Of a stretch of DNA of 32,000 bases, positions 13,559 through 13,707 are shown piece after piece. How positions within the stretch are numbered: the first letter of the stretch is position 1; each line of letters opens with the position of its first letter. The position numbers and the translations under genes were made by a program. Below the pieces are notes generated by a model. The model saw only the letters and a program-made list of their open reading frames with translations, did not search any database and was not told the origin of the DNA. The DNA comes from Promethearchaeia archaeon (GTDB lineage Archaea; Asgardarchaeota; Lokiarchaeia; Sigyniarchaeales; SOKP01): NCBI GenBank assembly GCA_046497275.1, contig JAWOFX010000029.1:1-32000 (forward strand), written 5' to 3'.

Positions 13559-13690
13559 TTAAGAAAGTAGTTTTAATTTCTTTTTTTTACTCAAAAGATA
13601 AATAAGTATGAAGCTTGTAATAAAAACTCCGAAGAGTATATAAAGATCATAACCTGGAATCGTGATTCCATCTCCTCCGACAAATCCCAT
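13559..13690 (-). CDS. Free-standing Loki-CTERM-like microprotein, 43 aa: MGFVGGDGITIPGYDLYILFGVFITSFILIYLLSKKKKLKLLS
   Basis: Hand-translated; below the ORF-track cutoff. GAGGTGA SD at 13707-13701, in-frame TAA upstream at 13717-13715, and the same IPGY + TM + basic-tail layout as the C-terminus of the 16869-18731 protein. Confidence 0.75.
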   Translation of the reverse strand: MGFVGGDGITIPGYDLYILFGVFITSFILIYLLSKKKKLKLLS

Positions 13691-13700
13691 TATTTTATTT

Positions 13701-13707
13701 TCACCTC
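13701..13707 (-). promoter_or_regulatory. Shine-Dalgarno GAGGTGA for the microprotein
   Basis: tcacctc on the + strand, with a 10-nt spacer to ATG13690. Confidence 0.65.

Follow-up and report, generated by a model that had tools for sequence, protein, structure and literature searches.

The stretch of DNA analysed here (the window, 32,000 nucleotides from Promethearchaeia archaeon) belongs to an assembly of 3.85 Mb with 30% G+C, denoted G000 below, which encodes archaeosortase H (ArtH) as well as Loki-CTERM proteins. Between the gene of a 260-aa ABC ATPase (13879-14661), which lies upstream on the same strand, and the downstream gene of a 237-aa AIM24-family protein (12721-13434), we have analysed a short ORF whose product of 43 residues, MGFVGGDGITIPGYDLYILFGVFITSFILIYLLSKKKKLKLLS, consists of a Loki-CTERM tag preceded by a Gly-rich N-terminal tail and lacks any cargo. 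The 188 nt between the stop codon of the ABC ATPase and the ATG of the microprotein hold no other ORF, and on the plus strand no ORF of at least 25 aa runs across the microprotein stretch. The ORF, the Shine-Dalgarno sequence ahead of it and the in-frame stop codon further upstream, as described in the initial annotation, were all recovered (Table 1), and the protein collection searched contains the ORF as called, in the form of a nameless gene on NCBI, JGI and ENA contigs.

Table 1. Features of the microprotein locus, with positions in the window, and of the archaeosortase H gene, located elsewhere in the genome.
Feature	Coordinates	Strand	Basis or remark
43-aa ORF, cargo-less Loki-CTERM microprotein	13559..13690 (stop codon 13559-13561 included)	minus	ORF listing and NCBIfam profile
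Gly-rich N-tail MGFVGGDGIT, residues 1-10	13661..13690	minus	8/10 residues invariant across three alleles
IPGY signature motif, residues 11-14	13649..13660	minus	HMM match begins here
Hydrophobic segment LYILFGVFITSFILIYLL, residues 16-33, predicted TM helix	13592..13645	minus	Kyte-Doolittle 15-residue windows up to 2.6
Basic C-tail SKKKKLKLLS, net charge +5, predicted cytoplasmic	13562..13591	minus	
Shine-Dalgarno GAGGTGA, 10 nt upstream of ATG	13701..13707	minus	pairs with 16S 3' end
In-frame TAA, closing the frame 8 codons upstream of ATG	13715..13717	minus	
Conserved intergenic block with TATA-box-like TTAAATAT (13758-13765), 68-75 nt upstream of ATG	13743..13772	minus	nearly invariant in three-way alignment
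T8 tract, 11-18 nt past the stop, candidate archaeal oligo-T terminator	13541..13548	minus	judged from the sequence
Archaeosortase H gene, 368 aa	G000:C172:64669-65775 (L109:1426-2532)	minus	NF041736, 326.5 bits (cut-off 200)

Loki-CTERM proteins (NCBIfam NF033507) share an IPGY/F motif, a TM helix and a cluster of Lys/Arg residues at the extreme C-terminus, and the microprotein has the same three elements in the same order, as its IPGY motif is followed by a hydrophobic segment of 18 residues and by the cluster KKKKLK (residues 35-40). Indeed, the ORF scores 29.0 bits on the NF033507 profile (E = 8.7e-7), above the curated cut-off of 19.9 bits, with residues 11-38 aligned to positions 1-26 of the 27 in the model and with the chain ending 5 residues past the match. 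The other two known alleles score 28.5 and 27.3 bits, and when all six frames of the G000 assembly are searched the ORF is the top match to this profile, which at E ≤ 0.002 has no match in 14 control genomes. These results support the earlier identification of the ORF as a free-standing Loki-CTERM tag. The N-terminal tail resembles the linker found ahead of IPGY when a Loki-CTERM protein is of full length (for instance ...GNGNGNGQIPGY and ...KPSGGIPGY). However, typical members of the family are open frames of about 110 to 1900 aa in which the tag ends an exported protein with a signal peptide and a passenger domain, whereas here no more than 10 residues come before IPGY, so that both the signal peptide and the passenger domain are absent, as had been noted initially. 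The microprotein had also been said to carry the same tail as a 620-aa surface protein encoded in the window (16869-18731). Qualitatively this holds, as the latter displays IPGY, a hydrophobic segment and RRKK, but at the level of the profile it does not, the 620-aa protein scoring 10.1 bits, which is under the cut-off.

Searches of wider collections returned very few relatives of the microprotein. No match was found in Pfam for the 43-aa ORF, and Rfam contained no known RNA family over positions 13200-14000, a snoR14 match being rejected as a chance hit (20 bits, half the gathering score of 40; E = 0.38). Using phmmer against 1.84 billion representatives we retrieved the ORF itself and one repetitive protein of 526 aa, and a word-indexed protein search gave the ORF and its ENA ortholog and nothing else. 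The same two proteins were alone among 653 candidates when a profile built from 34 Loki-CTERM tails was run against proteins of 19-77 aa, and the best scores of a feature search in the ESM Atlas (0.80-0.82) were at chance level. These negative results are no proof that cargo-less tags are lacking elsewhere, because E-values scaled to 5.8 billion sequences leave a motif of 27 positions almost undetectable.

The sequences flanking the ORF provide indications on its expression. All 7 bases of the Shine-Dalgarno sequence pair with the 16S 3' end of G000 itself, GGATCACCTCCT (the same holds for both 16S 3' ends), and in the two diverged orthologs the sequence is extended to GGAGGTGA. Considering the 2644 long ORFs of G000, a GGTG is found upstream in around 5% of them, with a peak at positions -15 to -9, and that of the microprotein lies at -15; since so few long ORFs have such a sequence, its presence is suggestive of translation but does not prove it. 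Further upstream, the conserved intergenic block containing TTAAATAT is a candidate promoter of the microprotein ORF itself, a reading whose ground is the archaeal TATA consensus. A second conserved TATA-like block is seen in the three-way alignment between the micro-ORF and AIM24, and the microprotein ORF thus flanked looks like an independent small transcription unit, as far as can be judged from these elements. Regarding transcripts, Logan contigs from four salt-lake metatranscriptome runs belonging to two studies are 100% identical to AIM24 (12743-13448) and to the ABC ATPase (13994-14656), which indicates that the organism, or a nearly identical strain, was present in those RNA libraries. 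No Logan RNA contig covers positions 13449-13993, a gap which also takes in the 3' end of the ABC gene.

The ORF is known in three alleles, which allowed us to analyze how substitutions are distributed along its codons. The G000 type, whose identical 43-aa product is found with identical synteny in two NCBI assemblies (contigs L040 and L041), is accompanied by a JGI contig (L110, product P0005) with around 91% nucleotide identity to G000 and the same order of genes (552-aa permease, ABC ATPase, micro-ORF and AIM24), and by an ENA contig of 546 nt (L042, product P0003) with around 83% nucleotide identity, which comprises the micro-ORF and, behind it, the beginning of AIM24. Over some 9-17% of nucleotide divergence, no allele has lost the ATG, the stop codon, the length of 43 codons or the Shine-Dalgarno sequence. 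Between G000 and L042 the differences at codon positions 1/2/3 amount to 3/2/19 (dN/dS 0.057), between G000 and L110 to 2/2/16 (dN/dS 0.061) and between L042 and L110 to 1/4/7 (dN/dS 0.22). Third positions therefore hold 19 of the 24 changes in the first comparison and 16 of the 20 in the second, i.e. 79-80%; these two comparisons share a branch and are non-independent, and for the first one the binomial probability of at least 19 of 24 changes falling at one codon position is around 5e-6. In the two shifted frames of the same strand the ratios are above 1. The overall similarity is 82% in the ORF and 80-83% in the flanking intergenic DNA; as the flanks are equally similar, the ORF is not merely a conserved patch, and its coding mark is the placement of the changes within codons. 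Taken from this pattern, we have high confidence that the frame undergoes translation and that purifying selection acts on it in the G000 clade.

At the protein level, IPGYD is invariant across the three alleles even though both diverged ones have synonymous substitutions in the Pro and Gly codons, and the replacements in the C-terminal tail are K35R, K37R and K40N. Given that the three alleles are closely related, statistics cannot tell a constraint acting on the motif apart from the constraint expected on a generic transmembrane helix.

We have examined the distribution of the gene among related genomes using AIM24 as an anchor, an ortholog of which is present in 19 of the 41 genomes, and inspected the upstream regions at 16 orthologous AIM24 loci. 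The sister congener (G002) has the same order of genes (552-aa permease, ABC ATPase, AIM24 and EamA) and a spacer of 104 nt as compared to 444 nt in G000, and it has no micro-ORF. Absence from a sister species in spite of identical synteny makes the gene dispensable; the ORF is conserved in the diverged populations of a narrow clade, and the gene is lineage-restricted. In a further congener (G004), a Loki-CTERM-like frame of 40 codons immediately precedes AIM24 on that gene's strand (L022:1192-1321; G004:C266), scoring 20.6 bits and being around 39% identical to the 43-aa ORF. The sole ATG of this frame lies across an A8 run and is shifted by one base relative to it, which could reflect a homopolymer assembly error, decay or slippage, and the frame has no Shine-Dalgarno sequence. 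A tree of three proteins (925 columns) has G002 as sister to G000 with G004 outside both (support 100). Homology of the G004 frame would imply an element older than the split between G000 and G002 that disappeared from G002 and degenerated in G004; without such homology, the gene would be a novelty of the G000 clade.

The same survey bears on two points raised in the initial annotation, whether stand-alone copies are conserved across Asgard genomes and whether they are syntenic with the ABC ATPase. Conserved stand-alone copies were not found in the relatives, where most of the other short frames are startless fragments, and the synteny is not general, as the G004 mini-frame adjoins AIM24 and not the ABC gene. 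A third possibility raised there, that orthologous loci would carry a full-length Loki-CTERM gene at this position, found no instance in any of the 16 loci inspected.

Short frames with a Loki-CTERM tag are also seen elsewhere, as around 11 of the approximately 150 matches listed for the 41 genomes lie in open frames below 90 aa. Those examined outside G000 are mostly startless or cut by contig ends. An exception is a 56-aa ORF of another relative (G031:C57; L106:574-744, minus strand), with an SD-like GGAAGTGATGG upstream and 26.8 bits on the Loki-CTERM profile, whose signal-peptide-like N-terminus is directly followed by GGIPGY, a hydrophobic segment and RQKR, so that it looks like a precursor having both targeting signals and no passenger domain. 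Within G000 there are two more stand-alone ORFs, both on the minus strand and both lacking a Shine-Dalgarno sequence. One encodes 50 aa (G000:C25:31299-31451; L002:1489-1641; 28.4 bits) and sits between genes of MFS-type and AEC-type transporters; it has no diverged ortholog on record, and it looks like a true remnant, or decayed gene tail, since in the congener G001 the ortholog of the AEC transporter gene is preceded by a Loki-CTERM frame that spans at least 289 aa. The other encodes 69 aa without a signal peptide (G000:C3:2754-2963; L004:1495-1704; 26.5 bits) and has no counterpart at the orthologous loci of four congeners. Among the three short stand-alone Loki-CTERM ORFs of the genome, the 43-aa ORF is the one with a strong Shine-Dalgarno sequence, and among all the short Loki-CTERM ORFs it is the one for which a selection test was possible.

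With respect to its origin, the ORF probably derived from the 3' end of a gene encoding a Loki-CTERM surface protein. The best genome-wide matches of the ORF in G002, G004 and G001 are the tails of the orthologs of the 620-aa neighbour (44-50% identity), but descent from this neighbour is no more than hinted at, as unrelated Loki-CTERM tails match the ORF as well or better (58% in G024). A reading of the ORF as part of a split gene, or as an exon, was discarded on account of its own conserved ATG and Shine-Dalgarno sequence, and because the ABC ATPase of G002, a genome without the ORF, has an unchanged last residue position.

A candidate enzyme for the tag is encoded in the same genome. The archaeosortase H of G000 also matches the model of the ArtH N-terminal domain and is the sole match of the genome to the exosortase/archaeosortase signature model TIGR04178; PF09721 (Exosortase_EpsH) missed this protein, which was found by TIGR04178 and NF041736. 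In an alignment with 18 relatives Cys253 is invariant, as are Arg and His residues. Among the 41 related genomes, 39 have ArtH and 40 have Loki-CTERM, some of these relatives having a second ArtH paralog with lower scores (98-168 bits). We presume that ArtH is the enzyme acting on Loki-CTERM, as suggested by this co-occurrence and by the naming of the families. To our knowledge, sequence models are the only source of what is known about archaeosortase H and the Loki-CTERM tag. The ArtH gene is on another contig and has no genomic linkage to the microprotein. A prediction of the complex from the ArtH and microprotein alignments gave a score of 0.03, the mark for a verdict being 0.32.

Considering these data together, we propose, with moderate confidence, that the ORF encodes a single-pass membrane microprotein which presents a bare sorting tag to ArtH, either as a mini-substrate or as a competitor or reporter of the load on ArtH. 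The net charge is -2 in the N-terminal tail (residues 1-15) and +5 in the C-terminal tail, on either side of the 18-residue segment, and this charge pattern, the positive-inside rule and the analogy with the Pf3 coat protein favour an N-out insertion without signal peptide. The Pf3 coat is a structural protein of a phage, with around 44 residues, whose acidic N-tail is translocated without a signal peptide, resulting in a single span with the N-terminus out and the C-terminus in. The microprotein has no sequence relationship with it but is of similar size, with an acidic N-tail, one TM helix and a basic C-tail that is predicted here to be cytoplasmic. In the microprotein, the hydrophobic segment together with the Lys cluster would serve as a reverse signal-anchor: the acidic tail, with its mere 15 residues, would cross the membrane with no signal peptide, and the C-terminus would stay inside. 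Such a topology would place IPGY at the outer face of the membrane, as in a normal substrate after export, where ArtH may recognise it. Two outcomes can be envisaged from this point: the microprotein could be a minimal substrate, yielding a peptide of around 11-13 residues, released or lipid-linked, and a membrane stub, or it could occupy or tune ArtH as a competitor.

The possibility that the ORF is a non-functional remnant, i.e. a decayed leftover from the 3' end of a Loki-CTERM gene that was lost, its frame having stayed open by chance, is in line with what is observed at other sites: most other short Loki-CTERM frames examined in the relatives are startless or truncated at contig ends, the 50-aa ORF of G000 stands where G001 has a long frame, and in G004 the mini-frame ahead of AIM24 lacks a start codon in its own frame. 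At the locus under study, however, the low dN/dS (around 0.06), the concentration of changes at third positions and the retention of start, stop, length and Shine-Dalgarno sequence across diverged populations all oppose such an explanation, as does the lack of a full-length gene at this position in the orthologous AIM24 loci. The codon-position pattern largely excludes a dead remnant, which we regard as very improbable, and the initial annotation, which had argued against a remnant from the intact Shine-Dalgarno sequence, is strengthened in this respect. We assign a similarly slight probability to a membrane-active toxic peptide, of the type I toxin or holin kind, that would merely resemble a sorting tag. 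The small size, the single hydrophobic helix with a charged tail, the strong ribosome-binding site and the candidate promoter and terminator of its own would suit a toxin, but the match to Loki-CTERM is specific and above threshold and includes IPGY, the locus has neither an antisense ORF nor a known RNA family, and the surroundings are neither a mobile element nor a defence locus.

A weightier, though still doubtful, explanation is that of a small TM protein unrelated to sorting, which might be an accessory or regulatory subunit for the ABC ATPase and the 552-aa permease, or a tether for AIM24, with IPGY as an ancestral relic. Purifying selection suits any functional small membrane protein, and within the clade that has the ORF it is always located between the ABC ATPase and AIM24; the G004 mini-frame, directly upstream of AIM24 and away from the ABC gene, would also fit a link to AIM24. 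Nevertheless, G002 has the ABC, permease and AIM24 genes and no ORF, and the fact that each unit has its own conserved TATA-like block suggests that they are transcribed separately. Furthermore, a mere relic is not predicted to be the best Loki-CTERM match of the genome, nor to have a motif that is invariant in spite of synonymous changes in its codons.

Returning to the presentation of a tag to ArtH, the more specific version of this reading, which we put forward tentatively, is that of a dedicated and selected bare tag exapted from the 3' end of a surface-protein gene, serving ArtH as a minimal substrate that would give a lipid-linked surface peptide of around 12 residues, or else as a competitor or sensor input for the load on ArtH. 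The mechanistic template for a possible action of ArtH is ArtA of Haloferax volcanii, for which cleavage and lipid attachment of PGF-CTERM-tagged proteins have been established experimentally (PMC6098224). The layout of motif, TM helix and basic tail is common to the PGF-CTERM/ArtA and microprotein/ArtH systems, but the motif, the enzyme subfamily and the phylum differ, and the known substrates of ArtA are exported Sec or Tat proteins with cargo, unlike the cargo-less microprotein. A precedent for a regulatory role of a bare tag is found in Streptococcus gordonii, where the C-peptide of sortase A substrates is sensed by the two-component system SGO_1180 (as cited in PMC11326707), so that a membrane-embedded stub devoid of cargo reports on sorting activity. 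In that case the stub is cut from full-length adhesins and does not have a gene of its own, and the system belongs to an unrelated enzyme family in bacteria.

In the literature searched there is no mention of 'Loki-CTERM', no description of a cargo-less archaeosortase substrate and no experiment on the anchoring of surface proteins in Asgard archaea, and cargo-less tags are not discussed by Haft et al. (2006). If the bare-tag reading is true, the microprotein would be the first functional cargo-less archaeosortase substrate, and it would come from an Asgard archaeon. As a natural protein of 43 residues that consists of the tag and is kept by selection, it could in any case serve as a ready-made minimal substrate or ligand for studying recognition by ArtH, the cleavage site and lipid transfer, and it illustrates clearly, on a small scale, how the tail of an existing gene may give rise to a new gene. 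Should cargo-less tags recur in archaeosortase and exosortase systems, this would point to a regulatory or product-forming role of the sorting signals themselves.

Two further observations concern membrane and surface proteins encoded in the window. At 20685-23282, following an ABC ATPase, there is an 865-aa protein in which a 12-TM permease is fused to an Rce1-like CPBP protease; its membership of ABC_perm_CPBP (60.8 bits against 435) and of the myxosortases was rejected, the scores being far under the curated cut-offs. Between 14851 and 18731, a convergent pair is made up of the gene of the 620-aa surface protein with the IPGY tail and that of the 552-aa polytopic membrane protein, the latter matching no family in Pfam or NCBIfam; four congeners share the conserved arrangement (the loci named being G002:C95, G004:C99 and G001:C151).
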